NCBI GenBank assembly: GCA_965219455.1
Contig: OZ244744.1
Location: forward strand, 4,352,001 to 4,416,000
Length of the DNA: 64,000 nucleotides
Source of the DNA: Candidatus Latescibacterota bacterium
Lineage (GTDB): Bacteria; Latescibacterota; UBA2968; GCA-2709665
Reading direction: 5' to 3'
Within the stretch, counting starts at the first letter, position 1. Every line of letters begins with the position of its first letter. A model generated the notes under the pieces. That model saw nothing but the letters and a program-made list of their open reading frames with translations. It did not search any database and had not been told where the DNA came from. The translations under genes and the position numbers were made by a program. Positions 25,535-61,976 of this stretch are shown one piece after another.

Positions 25535-25632
25535 GGGAGTGGATGGGGCACTGGTGGCCCTCGCGGGCTTCAAACCCGTTGCGGCGTGCTAATCACGCGC
25601 TGGGTGGGTTCGATTCCCACACATTCCCGCCA
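25535..25632 (+). tRNA. selC: tRNA-Sec (anticodon TCA)
   Basis: GCGGG-CTTCAAA-CCCGT anticodon arm, long variable arm, GTGGG-TTCGATT-CCCAC T arm, GCCA end; next to selAB. Confidence 0.95.
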
Positions 25633-38622: not shown

Positions 38623-39155
38623 CTGTACCCCCCTGACTAAGATTGACCGTGATTAACTATGATTACGATGATGGACTGTGATTAGACGACATGTAGACAC
38701 TGTGATTGATGTGGTCTTTGTGATGACCTGGAGCGAGGGATCGAGATTTATAGAGAGCTGGTGAACATTGCTCGATTACGCATGCCGCGCAACGTGGAAT
38801 TTCGGCACTTGCTCCGAGACGTAGTCTCTCACGTAGGGGTACTGCGGTCAGACGTTTAACAATGTGGATTCCAAAAACACCCCCTTTCAGAACGCGATCA
38901 GATCCGTGGCCGGCATTAACCACTTGTACAGGCGATCATCGCGTTAAAGTAGACGTACGACGGCCAGACATTTATCGGCGTGGTTTCCAGTTATCACCTC
39001 CTTTCCGAACGCGGCCAAGTTGGGTGATCGATGGAGTGTCAAAGCAGAGGTCGGTCAGAGTTTTTACTCTCATACCAGGAACCCGACCAAAGGGGGCGGG
39101 TTCCTGGCCCTAATGCAGACCTGGCGCGACCTGTTTCTGACAGGGCGGGTTCGCC
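38623..39155 (-). repeat. long array spacer (also 41247-41783, 43860-44393, 55151-55687): post-stop hairpin, tetraloop hairpin, two SD-containing units, TGATT array
   Basis: Four alignable spacers of 533-537 bp; about 41431-41760 and 44041-44370 are nearly identical. Confidence 0.85.
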
Positions 39156-41246
39156 TCAGGTTCCCCGGCCGAAGCTTTTTCCGAAGATCCACCAATCGGC
39201 GGAACCGACCTCACCGTCGCCGTCCAGATCGAAGCGCGCGTCATATCCCGCATCTCCCCAGCGCAGCCCGTAATTCGCGATGAATTGCAGAAAGTCGGAA
39301 AAGCTCACGGACCCGTCGCCGTCGAAGTCGGCAGCAAGGGGTTGCAGTATGGCACGTGAAGACACATCCCACAGCAGAATCGTACCGTCGTAACTGCCGC
39401 TTGCCAGCGTTGTCCCATCAGGCGAAAACACCACCGAATAGATCGGACCGGTGTGTCCTGTGAGGGTGCGTATATCCTGCCCTGAGGCTACGTCCCACAA
39501 CCACACCGCCTTGTACGGACTACAGGTTGCCAGCGTGGTCCCATCCGGCGAAAACGCCACCGACCAGAAATTATCGCCGCCTGTGAGGGCACGCAAATGC
39601 TGCCCAGTGGCTGCGTCCCACAACCGCACCGTACCCCTGATATCTGCGCTTGCCAGCGTTGCCCCATCGGGGGAAAACGCCACCCCCTGGATCCCCTGGG
39701 TATGTTCTGTGAGGGTGATTTTTTCTTGCCCGGTTGCCGGATCCCACAATCGCACCGTTTGGTCGTGACTTGCGCTTGCCAGGGTCTGACCATCGGGGGA
39801 AAACGCCACCGAAGCGACATCATCGGTATGTGCTGTGAGGGTATATTTCTCCTGTCCTGTGGTCACGTCCCACACCCTCACCGTTTCATCCCGATAGCCG
39901 CCACCACTTGCCAGGGTCGACCCATCCGGCGAAAACGCCACAGTCCTCACGGTGCCCGTATGTCCTTTGAGGGTGTCTTTCTCGTGCCCTGTGGCCGCGT
40001 CCCACAACCGCACCGTTTCATCCCGATAGCCGGCACCACTTGCCAGGGTCGACCCATCCGGCGAAAACGCGACCGAATTGACCCAACGGGTATGTCCCGT
40101 GAAGGTGCGTATATCCAACCCGGTGACGACGTCCCACAACCGGACCATGCGGTCGTTTCCGCCGCTTGCCAGCATCGTCCCGTCCGGTGAATATGCAACC
40201 GACCGGACGACGGAGGTATGTCCTGTAAGGGTGAGGGTGCTATTCTCCTGCCCCGTTTCCGCGTCCCACTGTCGCACCTCATTGTCGAAACCGCGGCTCG
40301 CCAGGGACATCCCGTCCTGCGAATACGCAACCGACGGGACACTGGACGTATGTCCTGTGAGGGTGTGTTTCTCGTGCCCTGTGGCCGCGTCCCACAACCG
40401 GACCGTACTGTCCCGACTCGCGCTTGCCAGCGTCGTTCCATCGGGCGAAAACACCACCGAATACACCCAATGGGTATGCCCGTCCAGGGTGGACTTTTCC
40501 TGTCCCGTTTCCACGTCCCACAACCGCACCGTACTGTCCCGACTCCCACTGGCCAGCGTCATTCCGTCCGGCGAAAAAGCCACCGACCAGACCTCATGGG
40601 TATGTGCTGTGAGCGTGTGTTCTTCCTGCCCTGAGTTCACGTCCCACACCCGCACGGTACTGTCCCGGCTGGCGCTTGCCAGCGTCGCTCCATCGGGCGA
40701 AAACACCACCGACACGACCCAGGGGTTATTCAACCTACCCCGGTACTCTTCATTGACGAGGGTGCTTCTCTCCTGCCCTGTTTCCACGTCCCACACCCGC
40801 ACCGTGCCGTCGCGACTGCCGCTTGCCAGCGTCGTCCCATCCGGCGAGAATGCCACCGCCTCAACGTCGTACCTGTGTCCCGTGAGGATGCTTTTTTCCT
40901 GTCCGGTTGCGACGTCCCACAACCGTGCCGTATCGTCCCGGCTGCCGCTTGCCAGCGTCAGACCGTCGGGCGAAAACGCAATCCCATTGACTCTGAACGA
41001 ATGTCCCGTGATCAGGGAAACTTCCTCCCCCGTGCGGGCATCGTAGAGCCAGATGCCGGCGGTGCCCCCCAAGGCCAGGAGCGTCCGGTCCGGTGACCAG
41101 GCCACGTCGAGCACGTAGCCTTTGCCCAGCCGCATGCGGGCGCCTTCGGGCAAGCTCCAGCGATTGTAGTCCTGTGCGTGGCTGTCCTGGGCGATCAAGA
41201 CGGCCGTCAACAGAATGAGGGTGCAAGAAATCGTCCGTTTTTTCAT
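39156..41246 (-). CDS. W2: secreted WD40-repeat protein with dockerin-like tail
   Basis: Same architecture as W1; GGGAGGA RBS before ATG 41246. Confidence 0.93.
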   Translation of the reverse strand: MKKRTISCTLILLTAVLIAQDSHAQDYNRWSLPEGARMRLGKGYVLDVAWSPDRTLLALGGTAGIWLYDARTGEEVSLITGHSFRVNGIAFSPDGLTLASGSRDDTARLWDVATGQEKSILTGHRYDVEAVAFSPDGTTLASGSRDGTVRVWDVETGQERSTLVNEEYRGRLNNPWVVSVVFSPDGATLASASRDSTVRVWDVNSGQEEHTLTAHTHEVWSVAFSPDGMTLASGSRDSTVRLWDVETGQEKSTLDGHTHWVYSVVFSPDGTTLASASRDSTVRLWDAATGHEKHTLTGHTSSVPSVAYSQDGMSLASRGFDNEVRQWDAETGQENSTLTLTGHTSVVRSVAYSPDGTMLASGGNDRMVRLWDVVTGLDIRTFTGHTRWVNSVAFSPDGSTLASGAGYRDETVRLWDAATGHEKDTLKGHTGTVRTVAFSPDGSTLASGGGYRDETVRVWDVTTGQEKYTLTAHTDDVASVAFSPDGQTLASASHDQTVRLWDPATGQEKITLTEHTQGIQGVAFSPDGATLASADIRGTVRLWDAATGQHLRALTGGDNFWSVAFSPDGTTLATCSPYKAVWLWDVASGQDIRTLTGHTGPIYSVVFSPDGTTLASGSYDGTILLWDVSSRAILQPLAADFDGDGSVSFSDFLQFIANYGLRWGDAGYDARFDLDGDGEVGSADWWIFGKSFGRGT

Positions 41247-41783
41247 TTGATAATCCTCCCTGACAATCACAAACTGTGTTTGTTCGGATTAACTACGATT
41301 AAAACCGCACGGAGAATCTGTGACTGATGTGGCAACTTAAATGCCTTGGAGCGAGTGATGGCGTTATCGAAATACCGGTTTTTGTCGTTCGGAGGAATAG
41401 CTCCTCCGCTTAGCAGTGTCACGTTTCATTTCAGCACCTGCTCCGAGACGTAGTCTCTCACTTAAACGTACAGCGGTGAGAGGTTTAACGACGTGGATTC
41501 CGATATCACCTCCTTTCAGAACGCGGACAGAACCGCGACCGGCATTAGCCACGTGTACAGGCGATCATCGCGTTAAAGTAGACGTACGACGGACAGACGT
41601 TTATCAGCGTGGATTCCGATATCACCTCCTTCCCAGACGCGGTCAGATTGGGTGATCGATGGAATGTCAAAACAGGAGTCCGTCAAGGATTTGACTCTCA
41701 TGCCGGAAACCCGCCCGAAGGGGGTGGGTTCCCGGCCCTAATGCAGACCTTGCGCGACCTGTTTCTGACAGGGCGGGTTCGCC

Positions 41784-43859
41784 TCAGGTGCCCCGGCCGT
41801 AGCTTTGTATGAAGATCGTCCAATCGCCGTACCAGACGGTACCGTCGCCGTTCAGGTCGAAGCGCGCGTCATATCCCGCATCTCCCCAGTTCAGCCCGTA
41901 CTTCGCGACGAATTGCAGAAAGTCGAGAAAGTCCACGGATCCGTCGCCGTCGAAGTCGGCAGCGTGGGTTAATGGTGCGGCACCCGGCGAGACATCCCAC
42001 AGCAGAATCGTACCGTCGTAACTGCCGCTTGCCAGCGTCGTTCCATCCGGAGAAAACACCACCGAATAGACCCGATCAATATGCCCTGTGAGCGTGCGTA
42101 TATCCTGCCCGGTGGCCACGTCCCACAACCACACGGGCTTGCGCAGACTGCCGGTTGCCAGTGTTGTTCCATCCGGCGAAAACGCCACCGACCAGTGACT
42201 CTCGTGGCCATCCGTGAGGCTGAGTAAATCCTGTCCTGTGGCCGCGTCCCACAATCGCACCGTACCCCCACCATCGGTGATTGCCAGCGTCGCACCATCC
42301 GGCGAGAACGCCACCGAATAGATCCTTCCGGTATGTTCTATAAGGGTATTCTTCTCCTGCCCTGTGGCCGCGTCCCACAACCTCACCGTACTGTCAAGAC
42401 TGGCGCTTGCCAGCGTCAGACCATCGGGCGAAAAAACCACCGACGAGACAGTGCGCGTATGTCCAGTGAGGGTATTCTTCTCCTGCCCTGTGGCCACATC
42501 CCACAATCGTACAGTCTCATCCTGACTGCCGCTTGCCAACGTCCTCCCATCCAGCGAAAAAGCCACCGACCGGACCCGATGGGTATGTCCGGTGAGCATG
42601 TATTTCTCATGTCCCGTCTCCACGTCCCACAACCTCACCGTACTGTCAAGACTGGCGCTTGCCAGCGTCAGACCATCGGGCGAAAAAACCACCGACGAGA
42701 CAGTGCGCGTATGTCCAGTGTGGGTATTCTTCTCCTGCCCTGTGGCCAAGTCCCACACCCACACCGTACGGTCGTTACCGCCGCTCGCCAGCGTTGATCC
42801 ATCCGGCGAGAACGCCACCGTAGTTATTTCGCGGGTATGCCCTGTGAGGGTAAGCGTGCTTTGTTCGTGTCCCGTTTCCACGTCCCACACCCGCACCGTA
42901 TTGTCCCCACCGGCGCCTGTCACCGTCGATCCGTCTGGCGAAAACGCCACCGACCTTACATACGACGTATGTCCTGTGAGGGTGTTTTTCTCCTGCCGTG
43001 TGGCCACGTCCCACACCCGCACCGTGCGGTCGCCACCACCGCTTGCCAGCGTCGTCCCATCCGGCGAGAAACCCACCGAGATGATCCAACTCGTATGTTC
43101 TTCCAGGGTGCTCTTTTCCTGTCCTGTTTCCACGTCCCACAACCGCACCGTACTGTCAGTACTGGCGCTTGCGAGCGTCAGACCATCAGGTGAAAACGCG
43201 ATCGACCGAACCCTTCCGACATGTCCCGTGAGCGTGTGTTTTTCCTCCCCGGTGGCCGCGTCCCACAACCGCACCGTGGTGTCCTGAAGACTTGCGGTGG
43301 CCAGCGTCGATCCATCCGGCGAAAACGCCACCGAAGTAACCCAGGGCGCATCCCGAGACCCATCTCCTATGATGGTGCTTTTTCCCTGTCCTGTGGCCAC
43401 GTCCCACAACCGCACTGTACCGTCGCGACTGCCGCTTGCCAGCGTCGTCCCATCCAGCGAGAATGCCACCGCCTCGACATCGTAGGTATGTCCCGTGAGG
43501 GTGCTTTTTTCCTGTCCTGTGGCCGCGTCCCACAACCGCACCATATCGTCCCGACTGCCACTCGCCAGCGTGAGACCATCGGGCGAAAACGCAATCGCAT
43601 TGACTTTGTATATATGTCCTGTGAGTAGTGAAATTTCCGCCCCCGTACGGGTATCGTAGACCCAGATACCGACGCTGCCCCCCACGGCCAGGCGCGTGCC
43701 GTCCGGCGACCAGGCCACGTCGAGCACGTTTCCTTTGCCCAACCGCATGTGGGCGCCTTCGGGCAGACTCCAGCGAAGGTAATCCTGTGCGTAGCTGTTC
43801 TGTGCATACAGAGCCGTCGCTAAAAGAAGCAGTAGACTCGAAACCGTTGTCCTTTTCAT
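41784..43859 (-). CDS. W3: secreted WD40-repeat protein with dockerin-like tail
   Basis: Same architecture as W1. Confidence 0.93.
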
Positions 43860-44393
43860 CTGTACCCCCCGACTGTGATTCAGGTGATTACGGTGATTAG
43901 AGGCTGATTAAAACCCATGAAGAGACTGTGTTTGATGTGGCTTTTGTTATGACATTGAGCGAGTGAGGGCGATATGCAGCGACCCGGTGTTCACTGGTCG
44001 GTGGCATCGTTCGGCCGCTTGCACTGCGCACCGTGTCCGTTCAGCACCTGCTCCGAGACGTAGTCTCTCACTTAAACGTACAGCGGTGAGAAGTTTAACG
44101 GCGTGGATTCCGATATCACCGCCTTTCCGAACGCGGACAGAACCGCGACCGGCATTAGCCACGTGTACAGGCGATCATCGCGTTAAAGTAGACGTACGAC
44201 GGACAGACGTTTATCAGCGTGGATTCCGATATCGCCTCCTTCCCAGACGCGGTCAGATTGGGTGATCGATGGAATGTCAAAACAGGAGTCCGTCAAGGAT
44301 TTGACTCTCATGCCGGGAACCCGCCCGAAGGGGGTGGGTTCCCGGACTCAATGCAGACCTGGCGCGACCTGATTCAGACACCGTTTATTCGCC

Positions 44394-46469
44394 TCACGTA
44401 CCCCGGCCGAAGCTTTTTCCGAAGGTCCACCAATCGCGGGACCCGACCTCACCGTCGCCGTCCAGATCGAAGCGCGCGTCATATCCCGCATCTCCCCAGC
44501 TCAGTCCGTACTTTGCGACGAATTGCAGAAAGTCTGAAAAGCCCACGGCCCCGTCACCGTCGAAGTCGGCGGCAAGGGGTTGCAGTGCGGCACGTGACGA
44601 GACATCCCACAGCAGAATCGTACCGTCGTAACTGGCGCTTGCCAGCGTTCTGCCATCCGGCGAAAACACCACCGACTTGACCGGATCGGTATGTCCTGTT
44701 AGGGTGCGTATATCCTGTCCTGTGGCCACGTCCCACAACCACACCGCCTTGTACGGACTGCAGGTTGCCAGCGTCATCCCATCCGGCGAGAACGCCACCG
44801 ACCAGAAATTATCGCCGCTTGTGAGGGCGCGTAAATGCTGACCTGTGGCCGCGTCCCACAACCGCACCGTACCCGCACCATCGGCGCTTGCCAGCGTCGC
44901 CCCATCGGGCGAAAAAACCACCCCATGGATCCCACGGGTATGTCCTGTGAGGCTGTTTTTCTCCTGCCCTGTGGCCGCGTCCCACAATCGCACCGTATTG
45001 TCGATACTGGCGCTTGCAAGCGTCGATCCATCGGGCGAAAACGCTACCGACGTGACTGTCGCCGTATGTCCTGTGAGGGTGTTTTTCTCGTGCCCTGTGC
45101 CCACGTCCCACAACAGCAACGCATTGTCCGAACCACCGGTTGCCAGCGTGGTCCCATCCGGCGAAAACGCCACCGGTGCGCCCGAACCGGTATTTCCCGT
45201 GAGGGTTTGTTTTTCCCGACCGGTGACCACGTCCCACAACACCACTGGACGGCCTCCGCTTGCCAGTGTCGTGCCATCCGGCGAGAACGCCACCGACGCG
45301 ATCCCACCACGGGAATGTCCTGTGAGCGTGTTTATCTCGTGCCCTGCGGCCGCGTCCCACAACTGGACCGTGGGTTCGTTACCACCGCTTGCCAACATCG
45401 TCCCATCGGGCGAATACACTACCGACCGGACGAGAGTGGTATGCCCGGTGAGTGTGAGGGCGCCTTTCTCCTGCCCGGTTTCTACCTCCCACAGCCGCAC
45501 CGTATTGTCGACGCTGCGGCTTGCCAACGTCATCCCGTCCTGCGAATACGCAACCGACCGGACGCTGGACGTATGGCCTGTGAGGGTGTTTTTTTCATGC
45601 CCTGTGGCCGCCTCCCATACCCGCACGGTACTGTCCCGGCTGGCGCTTGCCAGCGTCGATCCATCGGGCGAATACACCACCGAATACACCCGATGGGTAT
45701 GTCCTTCCAGGATGCTCCGTTCCTGTCCCGTTTCCACGTCCCACAACCGCACCGTGCTGTCCAGACTTGCACTGGCCAGCGTCATGCCATCCGGGGAATA
45801 AGCCACCGACCAGACCCGATGGGTATGTCCGGTGAGCGTGTGTTTTTCCTGCCCGGTTTCCACGTCCCACACCCGCACTGTAGAGTCGTTTCCAGCGCTT
45901 GCCAACGTCAGACCATCGGGCGAAAATGCCACTGAATAGACCCAGGGCCTATTCCGCAACTCCCGGTACTTTTCATTTACGAGGGTATGTTCTTCCCGCC
46001 CGGTGGCCACGTCCCACACCCGCACCGTACCGTCGCGACTGCCGCTTGCCAGGGTCGTTCCATCCAGCGAGAATGTAACCGCCTCCACGTCGTAGGTATG
46101 TCCCGTGAGGATGCTCTTTTCCTGTCCCGTTTCCACGTCCCACAACCGTACCGTTTTGTCCCGACTGCCACTCGCCAGCGTGAGACCGTCGGGCGAAAAC
46201 GCAATACCATTGACTCTGAACGCATGTCCTGTGATCAGGGAAACTTCCGCCCCGGTTTCGGCATCGTAGAGCCAGATGCCGACGCTGCCCCCCACGGCCA
46301 GGAGCGTGCGGTCCGGTGACCACGCCACGTCGCGCACGTTGCCTTTGCCCAGCCGCATGCGGGCGCCTTCGGGCAGACGCCAGCGATTGTAGTCCTGTGC
46401 GTGGCTGTACTGTGCAAACAGGAATGAAGCAAAAAGAAGCAATAGGCTTAGAATTGTTGTCCTTTTCAT
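44394..46469 (-). CDS. W4: secreted WD40-repeat protein with dockerin-like tail
   Basis: Same architecture as W1. Confidence 0.93.
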   Translation of the reverse strand: MKRTTILSLLLLFASFLFAQYSHAQDYNRWRLPEGARMRLGKGNVRDVAWSPDRTLLAVGGSVGIWLYDAETGAEVSLITGHAFRVNGIAFSPDGLTLASGSRDKTVRLWDVETGQEKSILTGHTYDVEAVTFSLDGTTLASGSRDGTVRVWDVATGREEHTLVNEKYRELRNRPWVYSVAFSPDGLTLASAGNDSTVRVWDVETGQEKHTLTGHTHRVWSVAYSPDGMTLASASLDSTVRLWDVETGQERSILEGHTHRVYSVVYSPDGSTLASASRDSTVRVWEAATGHEKNTLTGHTSSVRSVAYSQDGMTLASRSVDNTVRLWEVETGQEKGALTLTGHTTLVRSVVYSPDGTMLASGGNEPTVQLWDAAAGHEINTLTGHSRGGIASVAFSPDGTTLASGGRPVVLWDVVTGREKQTLTGNTGSGAPVAFSPDGTTLATGGSDNALLLWDVGTGHEKNTLTGHTATVTSVAFSPDGSTLASASIDNTVRLWDAATGQEKNSLTGHTRGIHGVVFSPDGATLASADGAGTVRLWDAATGQHLRALTSGDNFWSVAFSPDGMTLATCSPYKAVWLWDVATGQDIRTLTGHTDPVKSVVFSPDGRTLASASYDGTILLWDVSSRAALQPLAADFDGDGAVGFSDFLQFVAKYGLSWGDAGYDARFDLDGDGEVGSRDWWTFGKSFGRGT

Positions 46470-46815
46470 CTGTACCCCCCGGACTATGATTAAATATGAT
46501 TACGGTGATTAACTATGATTAAACCACATGAAGAGACTGTGATTGATGTGATTTTTGTAATGACCTGGAGCGAGGGATCGAGATTTGTAGAGACCTGGTG
46601 CACATTGATCGGCGGCATTGTTCGACCGTTCCCACTGTGGAACGTGTCACATGAGCACTTGCTCCGAGACGTAGTCTCTCACGTAGAGGTACTGCGGCCA
46701 GACGTTTAGCGATGTGGATTCGAATATCAACTCCTCTCCGAATTCGGCAAGGGCGGTGAACGGCGTTAACCGCTTGAGAAGCCGATAACCTGGTACGACG
46801 TCTTTTAGAGGCGCC
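46470..46815 (-). repeat. medium array spacer (also 59499-59853): one SD-containing unit plus TGATT array
   Basis: Aligns to the gene-proximal part of the long spacers. Confidence 0.8.
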
Positions 46816-48996
46816 TCATGAACCCTGGCCGAAGCTGCGTGCGAAGATCACGAAATCGTTGAACCCGACGTTACCGTCGCTGTCAAGATCGAAACGCGCG
46901 TCAAATCCGGCGTCACCCTGGCTCTGCCCGAACTGCGACGCAAACTGCAGGAAGTCGGGGAAACCCACAGTGCCGTCGCCGTCGAAGTCGGCAGCAAGGG
47001 GTTGAGGTGCGACATACGGCGACACATCCCACAGCAGAATCGTTTGGTCGTAACTACCGCTTGCCAGGGTCGTCCCATCCGGAGAAAACGCCACCGAACT
47101 GACCCACGTCAGATGTCCTGTCAGGACGCTTTTTTCCCGCCCCGTGGACGGGTCCCACAACCGCACCGCATTGTCCCGACTACCGCTTGCCAGGGTCGTC
47201 CCATCCGGAGAAAACGCCACAGACAAGACCCGGGACGTATGTCCCTTTAGGGTGCTTTTTTCGCGTCCCGTGGACGCGTCCCACAACCGAACTGTACTGT
47301 CCGAACTGGCGCTGGCCAGGGTCGTCCCATCCGGCGAAAACGCCACCGAATAGACATCTGACGTATGTTCTGTGAGGGTGTGTTTTTCCTGCCCTGTAGC
47401 CACGTCCCACACACGCACCGTCTCGTCGCCACTGGCGCTTGCCAGCGTCATCCCGTCCGGCGAAAATGCAACCGACAGGACTTCGGACCTATGTCCGGTG
47501 AGGGCGTGTTTTTCCTGTCTTGTGTTCCAGTCCCACAACCGCACCGTATTGCCCCGACTGCCGCTGGCCAGGGTCGTCCCATCCGGCGAAAACGCCACCG
47601 ATCGGACAGACCCCGTATGTCCTATCAGGGCGCCTTTCTCCCGCCCTGTGGACGCGTCCCACAATCGCACCGTCCAGTCGTCACTGGCGCTTGCCAGGGT
47701 CGTCCCATCCGGCGAAAACACCACCGAATTGACCCCAAGTGGTCCTGAGAGTCTGCTTTTCTCCTGCCACGTGGCCACGTCCCACAACCGAACTGTCTCG
47801 TTGCGACCGGCGCTTGCCAGGGTCGTCCCATCCGGCGAAAACACCACCGAATTGACCCCAAGTGGTCCTGAGAGTCTGCTTTTCTCCTGCCACGTGGCCA
47901 CGTCCCACAACCGAACTGTCTCGTTGCGACCGGCGCTTGCCAGGGTCGTCCCATCCGGCGAAAACACCACCGAAAAGACATAAGACGGATGTCCTGTTCC
48001 CATGATGCTGCTTTTTTTCTCCCCCGTGGCCAAATCCCACAACCGCACGGTATTGTCGGCACTGCCGCTTGCCAGGGTCGTCCCGTCCGGCGAAAACGCC
48101 AACGAATTGACCCCGCGGGTATGTCCTGTCAGGATGCTTTTCTCCTCTCCCGTGGCCACGTCCCACAGCCGCACCGTATGGTCGCTACTGCCGCTTGCCA
48201 GCATCGTCCCATCCGGCGAAAACGCCAACGCCCAGACCGGACGGGAATGTCTCGTTAGGATGTTCTCTTCCAGTCCGGTGGCCACGTCCCACAATCGCAC
48301 GGTCTCGTCGAGACTGCCACTTGTCAACGTCGTCCCGTCAGGCGAAAACGCAACCGACAAGACCCGACTGGTATGTCCTGTCAGGGTGCTTTTCTCCTGC
48401 CCGGTGGCGACGTCCCACACCCTCACCGTACTGTCGTAACTGGCGCTTGCCAGCGTCAGACCATCCGGCGAATACGCCACCGCCTCGACAGCCCTCGTAT
48501 GTCCCCCCAGGCTGCTTTTCTCCTGCCCGGTGGCCACGTCCCAAACCCGCACCCTATGGTCGTAACTGTCGCTTGCCAGCGTCGTTCCATCCGGCGAAAA
48601 TGCCACCGATAGGACAGACCGCGGATGTGCTCTGATACTGCTTCTTTCCTGTCCCGTGGCCACGTCCCACAATCGCAACCTACCGTCGAGACCTGCACTT
48701 GCGAGTGTCGTCCCATCCGGCGAAAATACCATCGAATGGAGTCTTCTCGTATGGCCCGTGAGCAGGGAAACTTCGGACCCGGTGTCGGCATCGTAGAGCC
48801 AGATGCCGGGGCTGGTGCCCACCGCCAGGCGTGTTCCGTCCGGCGACCAGGCCACGTCGCGCACGTTTCCTTTGCCCAGCCGCAGGCGGGCGCCTTCGGG
48901 CAAGCTCCAGCGATTGTAGTCCTGTGCGTGGGCGAACTGCGCAGACAAGACAGCCGTCGAAAGAATAATGAGACTCAAAATCGTTAGCTTTTTCAT
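46816..48996 (-). CDS. W5: secreted WD40-repeat protein with dockerin-like tail (one blade duplicated)
   Basis: Same architecture as W1; 123-bp exact internal duplication. Confidence 0.93.
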   Translation of the reverse strand: MKKLTILSLIILSTAVLSAQFAHAQDYNRWSLPEGARLRLGKGNVRDVAWSPDGTRLAVGTSPGIWLYDADTGSEVSLLTGHTRRLHSMVFSPDGTTLASAGLDGRLRLWDVATGQERSSIRAHPRSVLSVAFSPDGTTLASDSYDHRVRVWDVATGQEKSSLGGHTRAVEAVAYSPDGLTLASASYDSTVRVWDVATGQEKSTLTGHTSRVLSVAFSPDGTTLTSGSLDETVRLWDVATGLEENILTRHSRPVWALAFSPDGTMLASGSSDHTVRLWDVATGEEKSILTGHTRGVNSLAFSPDGTTLASGSADNTVRLWDLATGEKKSSIMGTGHPSYVFSVVFSPDGTTLASAGRNETVRLWDVATWQEKSRLSGPLGVNSVVFSPDGTTLASAGRNETVRLWDVATWQEKSRLSGPLGVNSVVFSPDGTTLASASDDWTVRLWDASTGREKGALIGHTGSVRSVAFSPDGTTLASGSRGNTVRLWDWNTRQEKHALTGHRSEVLSVAFSPDGMTLASASGDETVRVWDVATGQEKHTLTEHTSDVYSVAFSPDGTTLASASSDSTVRLWDASTGREKSTLKGHTSRVLSVAFSPDGTTLASGSRDNAVRLWDPSTGREKSVLTGHLTWVSSVAFSPDGTTLASGSYDQTILLWDVSPYVAPQPLAADFDGDGTVGFPDFLQFASQFGQSQGDAGFDARFDLDSDGNVGFNDFVIFARSFGQGS

Positions 48997-49157
48997 CTGA
49001 ATGCCCCTCCCGGACTAAGATTGACTGGGACTTCAATTTACTATGATTAGACGGCATGAAGAGACTGTGATTGATGTGATTCTGATGACGTCCTGAAGCG
49101 AGAGATGGACTCGTGAAGAGACCTGGCGCAACCTGTTTCCGACACCGTTTATTCGCC
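48997..49157 (-). repeat. short array spacer (also 57265-57425, differing by one base seen, and 52799-52954): TGATT array joined directly to the post-stop motif
   Basis: Direct comparison of the spacers. Confidence 0.85.
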
Positions 49158-50917
49158 TCAGGTGCCCCGGCCGTAGCTTTTTCCGAAGATCCACCAATCG
49201 CGGGACCCAACGGTACCGTCGCCGTCCAGATCGAAGCGCGCGTCATATCCCGCATCTCCCCAGCTCAGTCCGAACTTCGCGATGAATTGCAGAAAGTCTG
49301 AAAAGCCCACGGCCCCGTCGCCGTCGAAGTCGGCGGCAAGGGGTTGCAGTGCGGCACGTGACGAGACATCCCACAGCAGAACCGTACAGTCGTAACTGCC
49401 GCTTGCGAGGGTCGTCCCATCCGGCGAAAACACCACCGAATAGATCGGATCGGTATGTCCTGTGAGGGTGCGTATATCCTGCCCTGTGGCCACGTCCCAC
49501 AACCACACCGCCTTTTGCGGACTGGCGGTTGCCAGCGTGGTCCCGTCGGGCGAGAACGCCACCGAAAAGAAATTATCGCTACCTGCTGTGAGGGTGTTTT
49601 TTTCATGCCCGGTGGCCGCGTCCCACAACCGCACCGTACCACCGGCATCGGCGCTTGCCAGCGTCGCCCCATCGGGCGAAAACACCACTCCATGGATCCC
49701 ACGGGTATGTCCTATGAGGGTGTTTTTCTCGTGGCCGGTTGCCGGATCCCACAACCGCACCGTATTGTCGGAACTGGCGCTTGCAAGTGTCAATCCATCG
49801 GGTGAAAACGCCACCCACGAGACAGACGACGTATGTCCCGTGAGGATGTTTTTCTCCTGCCCTGTGGCCACGTCCCATAACCGCACCGTTTCGTCCCGAC
49901 CGCCGGCACTTGCCAGCGTGGACCCATCCGGCGAGTACGCCACCGACTCGATACGCGATGTATGTCCTGTGAGGGTATGTTCCTCCAGCCCTGTGGCCAC
50001 GTCCCACAATCGCACCGTTTCGTCGCGACTGCCGGTTGCCAGCGTGGTCCCATCCGGCGAAAACGCCACCGGTGCGCCCGAACCGGTATTTCCCGTGAGG
50101 GTTTGTTTTTCCCGACCGGTGACCACGTCCCACAACACCACTGGACGGCCTCCGCTTGCCAGTGTCGTGCCATCCGGCGAGAACGCCACCGACGCGATCC
50201 CACCACGGGAATGTCCTGTGAGCGTGTTTATCTCGTGCCCTGCGGCCGCGTCCCACAACTGGACCGTGGGTTCGTTACCACCGCTTGCCAACATCGTCCC
50301 ATCGGGCGAATACACTACCGACCGGACGAGAGTGGTATGCCCGGTGAGTGTGAGGGCGCCTTTCTCCTGCCCGGTTTCTACCTCCCACAGCCGCACCGTA
50401 TTGTCGACGCTGCGGCTTGCCAACGTCATCCCGTCCTGCGAATACGCAACCGAATGGACGCTGGACGTATGTCCCGTGAGCGTGTTTTTCTCCTGCCCTG
50501 TGGCCGCGTCCTATAGCCGCACCGTACGGTCGTGACTGCCACTTGCCAGCGTCGATCCATCCGGCGAATACACCACCGTATTCACACCGAGAAACTGCCC
50601 TTCCAGGGTGCTTAGTTCCTGACCCGTTTCCATGTCCCACAGCCGCACGGTACGGTCACTACCGGCGCTTGCCAGCGTGAGGCCATCGGGTGAAAACGCC
50701 AGCGAGGGGATCCTCCCGGTATGTCCTCTTAGCGCGTGTTTTTCCTGCCCAGTGGCCACGTCCCACAACCGCACCGTATCGTCCCGGCTGCCGCTTGCCA
50801 GCGTCAGACCATCGGGCGAAAATGCAACCGCATTGACTCTGAACGAATGTCCTGTGATCAGGGAAATTTCCGCCCCAGTGCGGGCATCGTAGAGCCAGAT
50901 GCCGACGCTGCCCCCTA

Positions 50918-52623
50918 GCGCGGCTTCGCTTTGCTCAGCCGCAACCAAATAGGTGGTAGTCAAGAGCAGATAGTTTTAGGGTATGCAAAACGGCGTTCAT
51001 CCCCTATGATGGTGGTACCCACCGCCATCAATGGAAGGAGGAACGCCGTGAAAGACTTCGTGGACCAATGTAGTGAAAAAATCACCGGAGTGGTATCCTG
51101 TTTTGATCGGGTTCTGTTCAAAGGGTACCTGCCGCTGGGATTTGGAACTGCGATGGAGCGGTTCATCAGCAATCAGGGTTTATTGTTGAAGGACTTCAAG
51201 CGTTTTGTGATGACGCATTCCGATACGATCAAAGCCCACGCGGAGGCGATGGCAAACAAGCACGAGCGCCCGTTCATCTATCTGCAACGCAACACCATCA
51301 GGAAAGAGGACGAAGCGCGACGGTTGGCAAAACACGATGGGATCACGCAAGGCCTGGTCTGTGTGTTTCGGGCCCTGGAAGGCTGCCAGAGTTTCAAGCT
51401 GGTTCCAGGGGAAGGAAGGCCTCGCCTGATCAACGCACAACGGAAATGCCTATGCTACTACTTTTACTGGATTGACCGGGAGTTCGGGTTGATGCATATC
51501 CGCATCCAGTCCTGGTTCCCGCTGGTGGTGCAGATCTGTCTCAATGGCCACGAGTTCTTGGCGCGCAAGCTCGAGCAACACGGCATCGCCTATGAAAAAT
51601 CAGACAACGCTTTTCTATGGATTGCCGATGTGGACCGGGCGCAACGCTTTGCCGATCGTTTTGTGGGCAAGAATTGGCCGCGCATTCTCTCGGCGTTCGC
51701 CCGCAAGGTCAACCCCCTGCTCAAAGACCTGCTTTCGGGCATGGACTACTACTGGGTCGTTGACCAAGCCGAGTTCGCCACCGACGTGATGTTCCAAAGC
51801 CCCCACGCCCTGAAGGTGCTGTATGAAAACCTGCTCAGACACACGGTGCTGTGCTTCTCTCCCCAGGACATCTTGACCTTCCTGGGCCGCAAACTCCACG
51901 GCAATTTTCAGGGCGAAGTCCTCACGGACTTCAAAAACAAACGCCACAAAGGCGCAAGAGTCAAACACCGGATGTGCGAGAACTGGATTAAAATGTACGA
52001 CAAACACGGGTGCGTACTACGCGTCGAAACAGTGATCAACCATCCAAGGCAGTTCAAGGTCCGCCGCTGGGGCATACGGCGAGGACAACGCGTGATGGGC
52101 TGGTATCCCATGGCCAAAGGCGTGGCCAACCTCTACCGCTATCGGGAAATCTCGTTGACGGCCAACCAACGCTACTTTCAGGCGCTGTCCGCAGCCCCTG
52201 ACGCCGCTACCGGACATCAAAGCCTCACCACACTGGCGCGGCCACGCAGGCACAAGGGACGTACCTATCGGGGCTTCAACCCCGCCGACCCTGCCGACCT
52301 CGCCCTGTTTACCGCTGTGTTGAAAGGCGAACACGCCCTGATGGGCTTCCGCAACCAGGACATCCGAACACACCTCTTCCAACATCCAGCATCCCTGCTG
52401 CAACGCACTCGGCACGCCAATGCCACCAGCCGCCGCCTCAAACGCCTACACGTCCGCGGCCTTATTGCAAAAATCCCACGGTCCAGACGGTGGCGCGTCA
52501 CACCCGAAGGGCACAAAATACTCGCCTTGTCTTTGACCCTTTACCATCAACACCCTACAACTAAACAAGCAGCATGAATAATTATCTACGCATTTTGCGT
52601 AGAAGTCACACTGTAAGACTCTA
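50918..52623 (+). mobile_element. 1706-bp insertion element with no terminal inverted repeats, CTA at both junctions and subterminal hairpins
   Basis: Boundaries fixed by the interrupted W6 frame; CTA at 50915-50917 and 52621-52623; hairpins at 50920-50942 and 52585-52603. Confidence 0.9.
51048..52577 (+). CDS. putative transposase: Rep_trans-like nickase motifs plus C-terminal winged HTH
   Basis: Only substantial ORF with an RBS in the insertion; AAGGAGG then GTG; QAEFATD, KMYDK, LRVET motifs; LKRLHVRGLIAK...WRVT wHTH. Confidence 0.75.
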   Translation: MKDFVDQCSEKITGVVSCFDRVLFKGYLPLGFGTAMERFISNQGLLLKDFKRFVMTHSDTIKAHAEAMANKHERPFIYLQRNTIRKEDEARRLAKHDGITQGLVCVFRALEGCQSFKLVPGEGRPRLINAQRKCLCYYFYWIDREFGLMHIRIQSWFPLVVQICLNGHEFLARKLEQHGIAYEKSDNAFLWIADVDRAQRFADRFVGKNWPRILSAFARKVNPLLKDLLSGMDYYWVVDQAEFATDVMFQSPHALKVLYENLLRHTVLCFSPQDILTFLGRKLHGNFQGEVLTDFKNKRHKGARVKHRMCENWIKMYDKHGCVLRVETVINHPRQFKVRRWGIRRGQRVMGWYPMAKGVANLYRYREISLTANQRYFQALSAAPDAATGHQSLTTLARPRRHKGRTYRGFNPADPADLALFTAVLKGEHALMGFRNQDIRTHLFQHPASLLQRTRHANATSRRLKRLHVRGLIAKIPRSRRWRVTPEGHKILALSLTLYHQHPTTKQAA

Positions 52624-52954
52624 AAGCCAGGAGCGCGCGGTCCGGCGACCAGGCCACGTCGCGCACGTCTCCTTTGCCCAGCCGCACGAGCGCTCCTTCG
52701 GGCAGCCCCCAGCGAAGGTAATCCTGTGCGTAGGCGAACTGTGCAAACAAGACAGCCGTCAAAATGAGAGTGACGCTCAAAATCGTTTGCCTTTTCATCT
52801 GAATACCCCTCCCGGACAATGATTAACTGGGGCTGTGATAAACAATGATTGGACGGATTAACTGCAATTGATGTGATCTTGATGATGGACTGGAGTGTGA
52901 GATGGATTCGCGGAGAGACCTGGCGCGACCTGTTTCTGACAGGGCGGGTTCGCC

Positions 52955-55150: not shown

Positions 55151-55165
55151 CTGAATATCCCCCCG

Positions 55166-55205
55166 GTCTAAGATTGACTGTGATTAACAATGATTGACTA
55201 TGATT
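55166..55205 (-). promoter_or_regulatory. 10-bp-phased direct repeats (RACTRTGATT on the + strand) directly upstream of the W7 RBS; variants precede W1-W9
   Basis: GTCTAAGATT GACTGTGATT AACAATGATT GACTATGATT. Confidence 0.65.
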
Positions 55206-55687
55206 AAACCCAAACGGAAAGACTGTGACTGATGTGACTATCGTCAGGACTTGGTGCGAGTGATTTAGATATGGAGAGATCTGGTGTAAATCGTTCGGTG
55301 GCATTGCTCTCCCGCTCACACAGTGCAACGTTTCATTTCAGCACTTGCTCCGAGCCGTAGTCTCTCATGTAGGGGTACTGCGGCCAGGCGTTTAACAATG
55401 TGGATTCCAATATCACCTCCTTCCGAACACGGACAGGTCCGTGACCGGCATTAACCACATGTACACGATCATCACGTTAAAGTAGACGTACGACGGACAT
55501 ACGTTTAACGGTATGTTTTCCAATATCACCTCCTTCGCAGACGCGGTCAGATTGGGTGATCGATGGATAGTTAAAACAGAAGTCTCTCAAGGTTTCAACT
55601 CTCATGCCGGGAACCGGACCGACGGGGATGGATTCCCTTCAGTAAAGCAGTTTTGGCCCGACCTGTTTCTGACAGGGCGCCTGCGCC

Positions 55688-57264
55688 TCACCCACCTCGG
55701 CCGTAGCTTTGTATGAAGATCGTCCAATCGCCGTACCAGACGATACCGTCTCCGTTTAGATCAAAGCGCGCGTCATATTCCGCATCTTCCCAACTCCGTC
55801 CGAACATTGCCGCGAATAGCAGAAAATCGAGAAAGTCCACGGATCCGTCGCCGTCGAAGTCGGCAGCGTGGGTTAATGGTTCGGCACCCGGCGAGACATC
55901 CCACAGCAGAATCGTACCGTCGTAACTGCCGCTTGCCAGCGTTTTCCATCCGGCGAAAACACCGCCGAATTAATCGGATCGGTATGCCCCGTGAGGGCGC
56001 GTATATCCCGCCCTGTGGCCAGGTCCCACAACCACACCGCCTTGAACGGACTGCAGGTTGCCAGTGTCATCCCATCCGGCGAAAAAGCCACCGACCTGAC
56101 CGCGCGGGTATGTCCTGCGTAGGTGCGTATTTCCTGCCCTGTAGTCACGTCCCACAACCGGACCGTACGGTCACCACTGGCACTTGCCAGCGTCATCCCG
56201 TCAGGAGAATACAAAGCCGAAAGGACGCTGGAGGTATGCCCTTTGAGGGTGAGGGTACTTGTTTTCTGCCCCGTTTCCACGTCCCACGACCTGACCGTAT
56301 TGTCGATACTGCGGCTTGCCAGGCTCATCCCGTCCTGCGAATAAGCAACCGACTGAACTCTGGACTCATGCCCTGTGAGGGTGTGAATCTCCTGCCCTGT
56401 GGCCGCGTCCCACACCCGCACGGTACTGTCCCGGCTGGCGCTTGCAAGCGTCGCTCCATCGGGCGAAAACACCACCGAATACACCCAATGGGTATGCCCG
56501 TCCAGGGTGGACTTTTCCTGTCCCGTTTCCACGTCCCACAACCGCACCGTATTGTCCAGACTCCCACTGGCCAGCGTCATTCCGTCCGGCGAAAAAGCCA
56601 CCGACCAGACCTCATGGGTATGTGCTGTGAGCGTGTGTTCTTCCTGCCCTGAGTTCACGTCCCACAACCGCACGGTACTGTCCCGGCTGGCGCTTGCCAG
56701 CGTCAGACCATCGGGTGAAAACACCACCGACACGACCCAGGGGTTATTCAACCTACCCCGGTACTCTTCATTGACGAGGGTGCTTCTCTCCTGCCCTGTT
56801 TCCACGTCCCACACCCGCACCGTGCCGTCGCGACTGCCGCTTGCCAGCGTCGTCCCATCCGGCGAGAATGCCACCGCCTCAACGTCGTACCTGTGTCCCG
56901 TGAGGATGCTTTTTTCCTGTCCGGTTGCGACGTCCCACAACCGCACCGTATCGTCCCGGCTGCCACTTGCCAGCGTCAGACCATCGGGCGAAAATGCAAC
57001 CGCATTGACTCTGAACGCATGTCCTGTGATCAGAGAAACTTCCGCCCCTGTCTGGGTATCATAGAGCCAAATGCCCGCAGTGCCCCCCGCGGCCAGCAGA
57101 GCGCCGTCCGGCGACCAGGCTGTGGCGCGCACGTCTCCTTTGCCGAGACGCATGCGGGCGCCTTCGGGCAGGCTCCAGCGAAGGTAATCCTGCGCGCGGC
57201 TGTCCTGTGTAAACCAGACAGCCGTCAAAAGAAGAATGAGGCTCGAAACCGTTAGCTTTTTCAT
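55688..57264 (-). pseudogene. W8: shortened WD40/dockerin paralogue with a frameshift near 55943
   Basis: Frame breaks after FSPDG of the last blade; the tail ([13 protein letters not shown]...IQSYGRGG) continues in another frame to TGA at 55688. Confidence 0.85.
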
Positions 57265-57425
57265 CTGAATGCCCCTCCCGGACTAAGATTGACTGGGACT
57301 TCAATTTACTATGATTAGACGGCATGAAGAGACTGTGATTGATGTGATTCTGATGACGTCCTGAAGCGAGAGATGGACTCGTGAAGAGACCTGGCGCGAC
57401 CTGTTTCCGACACCGTTTATTCGCC

Positions 57426-59498
57426 TCAGGTACCCCGGCCGTAGCTTTTTCTGAATGTCCACCAATCGCGAGACCCAACGGTACCGTCGCCGTCCAGATC
57501 GAAGCGCGCGTCATATCCCGCATCTCCCCAGCTCAGTCCGTACTTTGCGACGAATTGCAGAAAGTCTGAAAAGCCCACGGACCCGTCGCCATCGAAGTCG
57601 GCAGCAAGGGGTTGCAGCGCGTCACGTGACGAGACATCCCACAGCAGGATCGTACCGTCGTAACTGGCGCTTGCCAGCGTTCTGCCATCCGGCGAAAACA
57701 CCACCGACCTGACCGGATCGGTATGTCCTGTGAGGGTGCGTATATCCTGTCCCGTGGCCACGTCCCACAACCACACCGCCTTGAACGGACTACAGGTTGC
57801 CAGCGTCATCCCATCCGGCGAGAACGCCACCGACCAGAAATTATCGCCGCCTGTGAGGGCGCGTAAATGCTGACCTGTGGCCGCGTCCCACAACCGCACC
57901 GTACCGGCACCATCCGCGCTTGCAAGCGTCGCACCATCGGGCGAAAAAACCACCCCATGGATCCCACGGGTATGTCCTGTGAGGCTGTTTTTCTCCTGCC
58001 CTGTGGCCGCGTCCCACAATCGCACCGTATTGTCGAAACTGGCGCTTGCAAGCGTCGATCCATCGGGCGAAAACGCTACCGACGTGACTGTCGCCGTATG
58101 TCCTGTGAGGGTGTTTTTCTCGTGCCCTGTGCCCACGTCCCACAACAGCAACGCATTGTCCGAACCACCGCTTGCCAGCGTCATCCCATCCGGCGAAAAC
58201 GCCACCGGTGCGCCCGAACCGGTATGTCCTGTGAGCGTGTGTTTTTCCCGACCGGTGCCCACGTCCCACAACACCACTGGACGGCCTCCGCTTGCCAGCG
58301 TCGTCCCATCCGGCGAGAACGCCACCGACGCGATCCCACGGGAATGTCCTGTGAGGGTGTTTATCTCATGCCCTGCGGCCGCGTCCCACAACTGGACCGT
58401 GGGATCGTTACCACCGCTTGCCAACATCGTCCCATCGGGCGAATACACAACCGACAGGACGAGAGTGGTATGCCCGGTGAGGGTGAGGGCGCCTTTCTCC
58501 TGCCCGGTTTCCACCTCCCACAGCCGTACCGTATTGTCGACACTGCGGCTTGCCAGGGTCATCCCGTCCTGCGAATACGCAACCGACCGGACGCTGGACG
58601 TATGTCCTGTGAGGGTGTTTATCTCATGCCCTGTGGCCGCGTCCCACATCCGCACGGTACTGTCCCGACTGGCACTTGCCAGCGTCGATCCATCGGGCGA
58701 ATACACCACCGAATACACCCGATGGGTATGTCCTTCCAGGATGCTCCTTTCCTGTCCCGTTTCCACGTTCCACAACCGCACCGTACTGTCCAGACTTGCA
58801 CTTGCCAGCGTCATCCCATCGGGCGAAAATGCCACCGACCAGACCCGATGGGTATGTCCGGCGAGCGTGTGTTTTTCCTGCCCGGTGGCCACGTCCCACA
58901 CCCGCACCGTAGAGTCGTTTCCGGCGCTTGCCAGCGTCATCCCATCGGGCGAAAATGCCACCGAATAGACCCAGGGCCTATTCCCCAAATCTCGGTACTT
59001 TTCATTCACGAGGGTATGTTCTTCTCGCCCGGTGGCCACGTCCCACACCCGCACCGTACCGTCGCGACTGCCGCTTGCCAGGGTCGTTCCATCCGGCGAG
59101 AATGACACCGCCTGGACATCGTAGGTATGTCCCGTAAGGATACTTTTTTCCCGCCCGGATTCCACGTCCCAGAACCGCACCGTATGGTCCCGACTGCCAC
59201 TCGCCAGCGTCAGACCGTCGGGCGAAAACGCAACTGCATTGACCCTGAACGAATGTCCTGTGATCAGGGAAACTTCCGCTCCGGTGCCGCCATCGTAGAG
59301 CCAGATGCCTGCCGTGCCCCCCGCGGCCAGGCGCGTGCCGTCCGGCGACCAGGCTGTGGCGCGCACGTCTCCTTTGCCCAGACGCATGAGGGCGCCTTCG
59401 GGCAAGCTCCAGCGATTGTAGTCCTGTGCACAGATGTCCTGTGCAAACCAGACAGCCGTCAAAAGAAGAATCAGGCTCGAAACCGTTGGCTTTTTCAT
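57426..59498 (-). CDS. W9: secreted WD40-repeat protein with dockerin-like tail
   Basis: Same architecture as W1; closest to W4. Confidence 0.93.
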   Translation of the reverse strand: MKKPTVSSLILLLTAVWFAQDICAQDYNRWSLPEGALMRLGKGDVRATAWSPDGTRLAAGGTAGIWLYDGGTGAEVSLITGHSFRVNAVAFSPDGLTLASGSRDHTVRFWDVESGREKSILTGHTYDVQAVSFSPDGTTLASGSRDGTVRVWDVATGREEHTLVNEKYRDLGNRPWVYSVAFSPDGMTLASAGNDSTVRVWDVATGQEKHTLAGHTHRVWSVAFSPDGMTLASASLDSTVRLWNVETGQERSILEGHTHRVYSVVYSPDGSTLASASRDSTVRMWDAATGHEINTLTGHTSSVRSVAYSQDGMTLASRSVDNTVRLWEVETGQEKGALTLTGHTTLVLSVVYSPDGTMLASGGNDPTVQLWDAAAGHEINTLTGHSRGIASVAFSPDGTTLASGGRPVVLWDVGTGREKHTLTGHTGSGAPVAFSPDGMTLASGGSDNALLLWDVGTGHEKNTLTGHTATVTSVAFSPDGSTLASASFDNTVRLWDAATGQEKNSLTGHTRGIHGVVFSPDGATLASADGAGTVRLWDAATGQHLRALTGGDNFWSVAFSPDGMTLATCSPFKAVWLWDVATGQDIRTLTGHTDPVRSVVFSPDGRTLASASYDGTILLWDVSSRDALQPLAADFDGDGSVGFSDFLQFVAKYGLSWGDAGYDARFDLDGDGTVGSRDWWTFRKSYGRGT

Positions 59499-59853
59499 CT
59501 ATACCCCCCGGACTATGATTAAATATTATTACGGTGATTAACTATGATTAAACCACATGAAGAGACTGTGATTGATGTGGTCTTTGTGATGACCTGGAGC
59601 GAGTGATCAAGATATGTAGAGACATGGTGTGAAGCGTTCAGCGGCATTGCTTGACCGCTTCCATTGCGCAACGTGTCAGTTCAGCACTTGCTCCGAGCCG
59701 TAGTTTCTCACGTAGAAGTACATCGACAAATCGTTTAGCGACGTGGTTTCCAATATCATCTCCTTTCCGAACGCGTGCAGGTCTGTGAAAGGCGTCAAAC
59801 AGATGTTCAGCCGATCGCCCGGCGCGACCTCATTCAAACACCGCGCCGGCGCC

Positions 59854-61920: not shown

Positions 61921-61976
61921 CCGGCTATCCTCCCCGGCCTATGCACGCCTTTACCTGCATTGCTCAGCTGACCGCC

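Follow-up and report, generated by a model that had tools for sequence, protein, structure and literature searches.

What keeps a Shine-Dalgarno (SD)-like stretch repeated in the spacers of a gene array when it leads to no conserved gene? The question is raised by the window analysed here, 64,000 nucleotides of Candidatus Latescibacterota bacterium (GCA_965219455.1, contig OZ244744.1), which spans bases 4352001-4416000 of a single-contig 5.84-Mb genome (genome label G000). Most public runs that contain this stretch are sponge-associated. From about 36.5 kb to the end of the window, the minus strand carries an array of WD40 genes of roughly 690-730 amino acids (aa), whose products are signal-peptide WD40 propeller proteins with a C-terminus that is dockerin-like in sequence. 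Some of the spacers between these genes hold one or two copies of a unit with an SD-like site. Judged from sequence, the unit is a non-coding leader repeat that is conserved, restricted to one genus and exceptional in its complementarity to the tail of 16S rRNA.

Repeated units in the spacers of the array

The 14-mer GGAAAGGAGGTGAT, allowing up to two mismatches, has nine minus-strand matches between 38993 and 59768 and a single match elsewhere in the window (7076, plus strand). The chance expectation is 0.31 matches, and none of 100 shuffles reached ten. A tenth unit, with three mismatches at 38876-38889, is seen only at a laxer cutoff. The duplicated spacer units reported by an earlier reading of this DNA (the original prediction) are therefore real: there are ten, far above chance, across six minus-strand spacers. 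The prediction also had their distribution right, with two units in four spacers, one in two and none in four, and its period of about 116 bp matches the 113-117 bp that separate the SD-like starts of the two unit types, A and B. Two of the long spacers are 97% identical to one another. The spacers and units of the window are as follows.

38623-39155, 41271-41783, 43860-44393 and 55151-55687: spacers with two units, in the order A then B
46470-46815 and 59499-59853: spacers with a B unit only
48997-49157, 57265-57425, 61921-61976 and a short one above a gene split by an insertion (about 50430-50590): unit-free spacers
38783..38933, minus strand: B unit, SD-like core mutated to GGGGGTGTT at 38876-38889 (nhmmer, E 8e-41)
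38919..39045, minus strand: A unit, perfect GAAAGGAGGTGAT within 38993-39006 (14-mer search and nhmmer)
41412..41562, minus strand: B unit, perfect GAAAGGAGGTGAT within 41505-41518 (14-mer search and nhmmer)
41536..41673, minus strand: A unit, SD-like site at 41621-41634 (14-mer search and nhmmer)
44021..44172, minus strand: B unit, core GGCGG, 44115-44128 (14-mer search and nhmmer)
44153..44283, minus strand: A unit, core GGAGGCGAT, 44231-44244 (14-mer search and nhmmer)
46632..46783, minus strand: single B unit, core GGAGTTGAT, 46726-46739 (14-mer search and nhmmer)
55318..55465, minus strand: B unit, SD-like site at 55412-55425, 25-aa TTG open reading frame (ORF) at 55333-55410 (14-mer search and nhmmer)
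55466..55577, minus strand: A unit, SD-like site at 55525-55538 (14-mer search and nhmmer)
59662..59812, minus strand: single B unit, core GGAGATGAT, 59755-59768, 25-aa TTG ORF at 59676-59753 (14-mer search and nhmmer)

A match to the 16S rRNA tail

The 16S rRNA of this genome ends in ...GGATCACCTCCTTTCT (...GGAUCACCUCCUUUCU), and GAAAGGAGGUGAU (GAAAGGAGGTGAT) of the unit is therefore a perfect 13-nt complement of its own 16S 3' tail. Such a match is rare in the genome. The 11-mer AAGGAGGTGAT occurs nine times in 5.84 Mb, six times in the array and once in the rDNA itself; one of the occurrences outside the array is a true ribosome-binding site (RBS), with an ATG 5 nt downstream. The perfect 13-mer is kept in 24 of 73 units. 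Changes affect 13 of 365 cells at the G positions of the 13-mer, which are opposite C in the rRNA, and 55 of 365 cells at the A positions, where A to G accounts for 37 of the 55. GAAAGGAGGUGAU is the most constrained feature of the unit, and it is not followed by a conserved start codon; that the units lead to no conserved gene, as had been claimed, is borne out.

The founder copy at the head of the array

In this genome, the array has its head just past the window end. We examined array heads at 12 loci, leaving out those of G002, G005 and G012. All 12 arrays are preceded by the same pair of genes, one of the DHDPS family and one encoding 302 aa, and in all 12 a TTGACA-N17-TAAAMT promoter and a conserved initial transcribed stretch are followed by one or more units 60-290 nt on. 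In this genome the head promoter is TTGACA-N17-TAAACT (about 4417220-4417280, minus strand; L041), with a promoter scan score of 10 out of 12. The rRNA promoter of the same genome has the same form, TTGACA-N17-TAAATT. The combination of promoter and leader is present at just two places in the genome, and at both it precedes a unit and a secreted WD40 gene. Since the founder copy lies downstream of a strong promoter, it is probably transcribed. With a founder unit and promoter at every head examined, we infer that the units of the array are paralogous copies of a non-coding leader element of about 105 nt, copied with the genes, once as an A+B tandem.

Two other features of the heads were seen. 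An invariant stretch, ACTAAAGTTACGTATTAGT, follows the head promoter and could form a 5'-terminal hairpin (ACUAA/UUAGU). A GC-rich motif, GGCGCGCCCTGCGCC, recurs several times, with its flanks, in the stretch from the founder unit to the first WD40 gene at four loci of relatives (L029, L037, L038 and L040). We also considered an internal TTGACA as a remnant of the -35 element of the head promoter and rejected it, as the stretch aligns instead upstream of that promoter in G011, with a score of 64 (shuffles, 21.4 +/- 4.0; maximum, 42).

RNA data come from low-depth contigs of two sponge metatranscriptome runs, which cannot show strand, ends or absence. One contig (44205-44368) spans an A unit, one (39072-39308) ends just beyond the hairpin that follows an upstream gene (the T hairpin, described below), and one (41111-41313) covers a gene start and 43 nt of spacer; the B units lie outside these contigs, from which absence cannot be read.

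Copies in the genome and spread among relatives

A hidden Markov model of the ten units, run with nhmmer on the whole genome, returned 11 copies in the array, the eleventh just beyond the window end, and outside the array a single degraded copy at 1.25 Mb, with nothing further below E 0.05. At that locus (1254724-1257904, L154), promoter and leader are followed by the degraded unit GGAAAGGTATTGAT, and about 900 bp separate the unit from a 652-aa secreted WD40 gene. These counts show no genome-wide dispersal of the kind expected of a miniature inverted-repeat transposable element or other mobile repeat. Similar WD40 arrays elsewhere in this genome, such as a further one at 3.703-3.717 Mb, have no unit. 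The unit is therefore not required by the gene family; it is a lineage-specific addition.

Among relatives, BLAST with one spacer detected the unit in 13 of 14 further members of the genus and in none of seven genomes from other genera of the family. A sequence-only covariance model found it in 14 of 14 and none of seven, respectively, and in 1 of 31 genomes of the sister family, at E 0.004. With nhmmer, the window and the arrays of 13 further genomes from the genus gave 74 unit matches. The distribution of the element is limited to one Latescibacterota genus. Short patterns drawn from it gave candidates elsewhere that we rejected as chance or ordinary RBSs, namely nine matches to a 20-nt core pattern outside Latescibacterota-labelled records and 79 metagenome matches to a 19-nt pattern. 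When rescored with the unit model, these outside matches reach at most 20 bits, in the pattern region only, whereas full-length units score 72-98 bits. One contig labelled Gemmatimonadota and matched by the 20-nt pattern is the array of G010.

Orthologous spacers in at least five other species share the A+B pair and the T hairpin, and A+B pairs are present in G003, G009, G010, G012 and G013. The tandem is therefore older than the split of these species.

Selection on the element

Two comparisons indicate that the units are not junk but are kept by selection, presumably for a function. Among 12 orthologs, the 90-column core of the founder has an identity of 0.83, and the four-fold sites of the adjacent 302-aa gene have 0.69. 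In all 66 pairs, which are not independent of one another, the identity of the core is above that of the four-fold sites, with a mean excess of 0.148. Its flanks are less conserved, with 0.52 over 52 upstream columns and 0.67-0.69 in downstream stretches. Within the array, internal spacers with T hairpin, A and B have an identity of 82-85% across about 340 nt when species are compared (five species), and the flanking WD40 genes have identities of 75-83% in nucleotides, 68-79% in protein and 63-74% at four-fold sites. The original prediction had named passive co-duplication as the outcome that would count against it; conservation above these neutral proxies, at both the founder core and the spacers, speaks against such passive copying.

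Coding potential

Two B units contain 25-aa ORFs that start with TTG, and both read exactly as first described. A decaying leader peptide, which had been offered as one explanation of them, does not fit the genus-wide data. In 30 B units, the ratio of nonsynonymous to synonymous change (pN/pS) is 0.78 in the proposed frame and 1.07 and 0.72 in the other sense frames; stops take up 9 of 745 codons in the proposed frame and 11 of 718 in another. Column entropy per codon position shows no codon periodicity, either among the 12 orthologs (0.44, 0.40 and 0.39) or among the 30 units (0.68, 0.70 and 0.72). Among 41 full-length units there are six length changes, none a multiple of three and thus all frame-breaking, nine further units have in-frame stops, including the founder of this genome, and 12 have TTG where the start was proposed. 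In A units a 1-nt indel lies directly behind the SD-like site, and the nucleotides downstream of it stay conserved. Coding on the antisense strand was rejected as well, with pN/pS of 1.12, 0.72 and 0.68 and no frame singled out. The element makes no conserved peptide.

RNA folding

The element has no detectable conserved fold. RNAalifold assigns 30 B units a consensus energy of -0.07 kcal/mol, and a set of 18 longer stretches extending into the proximal segment one of -6.86 kcal/mol, with no compensatory changes in the predicted pairs of either alignment. Eight orthologous long spacers give a consensus fold of -52.5 kcal/mol in which the covariation term is positive (+2.54), and three spacer stretches have folding z-scores of 0.22, 1.01 and 0.72, no better than shuffles. 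The unit matches no Rfam family, in keeping with the original prediction, which could assign it to no known RNA family: a scan of the window at gathering thresholds returned only a tRNA-Sec, and an E-value scan of five array-head loci returned only a 26.9-bit match to RcsR1, outside the unit. A structured regulatory RNA, also suggested there, is not supported by these results.

Three particular pairings deserve mention. A compensatory hairpin change (CACGG/CCGTG vs CGCGG/CCGCG) reported from the window is real there but does not hold across the genus, where the two hairpins described are paired in 60.5% of cells compared with 59.2% after shuffling (30 units). Sequestration of the SD-like site by an upstream CCATCGATCACC held up in part. 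The two can pair, and the hairpin is the minimum-energy fold in seven of nine A units, but no compensatory change accompanies it; this AUCACC-GGUGAU hairpin is in the RNAalifold consensus, has z-scores from -2.35 to +1.43, and is disrupted four times without compensation. Lastly, 90.1% of cells allow a pairing between the SD-like site and a downstream box, AUCAC-NNN-CCUCC, a share that drops to 29-61% when the partner is slid. Both partners are conserved, and two-sided changes number zero.

Architecture of the spacers

The spacers are modular. The 38 nt after the stop codon are conserved and are followed by an optional T hairpin, A, B and a variable segment, which holds an ATCAC-TCG-CTCC box. 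The end proximal to the gene, about 125 nt, has TAATCA repeats and a G-run RBS. Such G-run RBSs had been claimed for the WD40 genes, and GGGGGG and GGGAGG are indeed present. The T hairpin is GC-rich, lies about 45 nt past the stop codon in long spacers, and resembles a terminator from which the U tract is absent; the homologous hairpin of G011 has a U tract. RNAalifold finds two-sided changes between species at two of its pairs. The features beside the units are listed here.

39075..39107, minus strand: T hairpin after the stop codon of the upstream gene (RNAalifold helix, columns 49-58 with 72-81)
41703..41735, minus strand: T hairpin (RNAalifold consensus and coordinates)
44313..44345, minus strand: T hairpin (RNAalifold consensus and coordinates)
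55607..55637, minus strand: T hairpin (coordinates)
39022..39034, also 41650-41662, 44260-44272 and 55554-55566, minus strand: upstream box CCATCGATCACCC, which can pair with GGTGAT of the A unit
41346..41359, also 38728-38741, 46565-46578, 55251-55264 and 59594-59607, minus strand: downstream box ATCAC-TCG-CTCC, which resembles the 16S tail
38650-38684, 43885-43910, 46487-46521 and 59516-59550, minus strand: TAATCA direct repeats, three to four copies about 10 nt apart, just upstream of the WD40 G-run RBS
48997..49157, minus strand: unit-free spacer of 161 bp, with a near-identical counterpart at 57265-57425

The TAATCA repeats may mark a promoter region or a set of sites for protein binding. 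The twin 161-bp spacers point to a recent segmental duplication within the array. At the junction of the unit-free spacer, CCAGGTCT is joined to CT, the sequence found at both module edges of long spacers; CCAGGTCT / CCAGCTCT at both edges is compatible with deletion or insertion. We infer that units were lost from some spacers by deletion between these short direct repeats (CCAGGTCT).

Possible function of the element

A ribosome-binding or decoy role, one of those first suggested for the units, is still the best fit. We tentatively propose, at a little under an even chance, that the unit is a leader or intercistronic RNA element of secreted WD40 genes that docks 30S subunits, does not start translation, and resembles STAB-SD, a 5' mRNA stabiliser of Bacillus thuringiensis cry3A (PMC4113751). 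The unit on the sense transcript would dock a 30S subunit without translation being started, and the docked subunit would shield or organise the leader or intercistronic RNA. Like STAB-SD, such shielding would protect the RNA from 5'-end-dependent decay, and the flanking AUCAC..CUCC boxes, which are like the 16S tail, may compete for the docking site. A sponge or target of CsrA was rejected, because the genome, rated 100% complete, is without CsrA (no match to PF02599).

Several observations weigh against docking. RNase J was not found in the genome (best match to TIGR00649, 37 bits against a cutoff of 400); two RNase Y and RNase E/G are present. Five of the ten units in the window have changes inside GGAGGTGAT, and four founder orthologs carry GGTGG rather than GGAGG. 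The RNA evidence is limited to the low-depth contigs, which give neither strand nor transcript ends, and a scan of the internal spacers of 38500-47000 finds no sense-strand sigma-70 promoter. The unit-free WD40 arrays elsewhere in the genome count here too. Strong conservation also runs about 90 nt past the SD-like site (GGAATCCACGTCG, TACGTGAGAAACT and TCGGGGCAA), so that docking of the 30S subunit alone is insufficient as an explanation.

Two alternatives, both of which we consider unlikely and to a similar degree, draw on some of the same observations. The spacer with terminator, A and B might act at the DNA level as a promoter or operator of the downstream WD40 gene, either as an unrecognised type of promoter or through regulators bound to palindromes (GATATC, AAACGTTT and TGTACA), and the match to the 16S tail would then be incidental. 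There is clear constraint with neither an RNA fold nor a coding signal, the conserved core has several short palindromes, and the terminator-like hairpin with its two-sided changes would call for a new promoter after it, in spacers where the scan found no sigma-70 promoter. However, a perfect 13-nt complement to the 16S tail that is rare in the genome is unlikely to arise by accident, the founder is probably transcribed, and Pfam finds no regulator domain in six flanking genes, three of which, along with the ORF of an insertion sequence (IS), have no match. Alternatively, only the founder might work, with the internal units as passengers of duplication that are subject to gene conversion and slow decay. 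The missing sigma-70 promoters in the scanned internal spacers, the altered GGAGGTGAT in half of the window's units and the optional presence of units (six spacers with them and four without) are all consistent with this, and the near-identity of two long spacers fits a recent duplication or conversion. Against it, the A+B pairs predate speciation, and the orthologous long spacers of five species are more alike than the four-fold sites of the genes that flank them.

Readings that depend on a fold or a peptide have still less in their favour. A switch in which the SD-like site pairs with either the upstream AUCACC or the downstream AUCAC-NNN-CCUCC box, and the downstream box, when unpaired, masks the G-rich RBS of the WD40 gene, would provide translational control; the frequent upstream hairpin of A units and the position-specific pairing of the downstream box argue for it. 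We nevertheless regard it as highly unlikely, given the zero two-sided changes, the four one-sided disruptions of the A hairpin without compensation, its scattered z-scores, and the four founders in which GGAGG became GGTGG while the box stayed unchanged. That the strong SD serves to translate a small ORF or leader peptide (25-27 aa) is hardly credible. The window does contain two intact TTG ORFs, the frame is open in 26 of 41 units, and many units have a stop (TGA, TAG or TAA) at a shared position, but the undistinguished pN/pS, the flat entropy, the frame-breaking length changes, the in-frame stops and the scarcity of TTG all oppose it. A new family of structured cis-regulatory RNA, such as a riboswitch or attenuator, would suit the leader position and the conservation at the nucleotide level; we think it just as improbable as the peptide, as there is no Rfam match, consensus fold or covariation and the folding energies are no better than those of shuffles.

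Relation to known systems

Hairpins and anti-SD elements that sequester an SD occur in translational riboswitches and thermometers. The element is like them in having an SD-like site beside complementary ...AUCACC and CCUCC boxes, with a hairpin possible. It differs in that the masked site is no gene's RBS and in having no covariation, stable fold or Rfam match. Intercistronic processing or stabiliser modules of polycistronic mRNAs are another known type. As in these, a 3' hairpin of the upstream gene is followed by what would be a protected 5' region, and the arrangement is repeated along the array; here, in contrast, protection would come from ribosome docking and not from structure.

The closest likeness is to STAB-SD as it is described in the pertinent passages of PMC4113751. 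In both cases an SD-like sequence in an untranslated leader, a putative one here, is complementary to the 3' end of 16S rRNA and lies upstream of a gene for a highly expressed secreted or stored protein; neither directs initiation, as far as sequence shows for the present element. According to the same passages STAB-SD acts by blocking RNase J1, whereas RNase J was not found here. Further differences from that description are that about 105 nt are conserved rather than a bare SD, that tandem and between-cistron placement are possible, that 170-290 nt or more separate the element from the start codon, and that the host belongs to a Latescibacterota genus rather than the Firmicutes. We do not claim membership in STAB-SD.

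Other features of the window and genome

An insertion of about 1.9 kb interrupts one WD40 gene (fragments 49158-50429 and about 50450-50590). The insertion is probably an IS element and contains a 548-aa ORF (50931-52577, plus strand) with no Pfam match. The tRNA-Sec gene of the Rfam scan is at 25535-25628 on the plus strand (RF01852, 73.6 bits). The dockerin-like C-terminus (75 aa) has 104 tblastn matches across the genome, and the WD40 N-terminus has 27. WD40 and other eukaryote-like repeat proteins of sponge Latescibacterota metagenome-assembled genomes are described in PMC12993501, whose WD40 passages make no mention of spacers; no search of a kind that could show the element to be unpublished was made.

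Implications

Whatever the mechanism, the array offers a clean example of non-coding spacer sequence conserved above the genes around it, and the unusually clear promoter that accompanies the element makes reporter tests possible. We speculate further, in a broader version that seems to us rather improbable, that the element represents a new kind of cis-element. It would be an unstructured leader or intercistronic RNA of 105 nt that uses its 13-nt complement to the 16S tail to dock 30S subunits untranslated, in a phylum without RNase J. It would be under stricter constraint than the host-interaction genes after it (eukaryote-like WD40), which evolve fast, and would set the stability or ribosome supply of the array in a sponge symbiont. 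If docking without translating is what the element does, SD-based protection of mRNA would reach beyond the Firmicutes and beyond RNase J, and there would be a handle on how uncultured sponge symbionts express big arrays of eukaryote-like repeat proteins.

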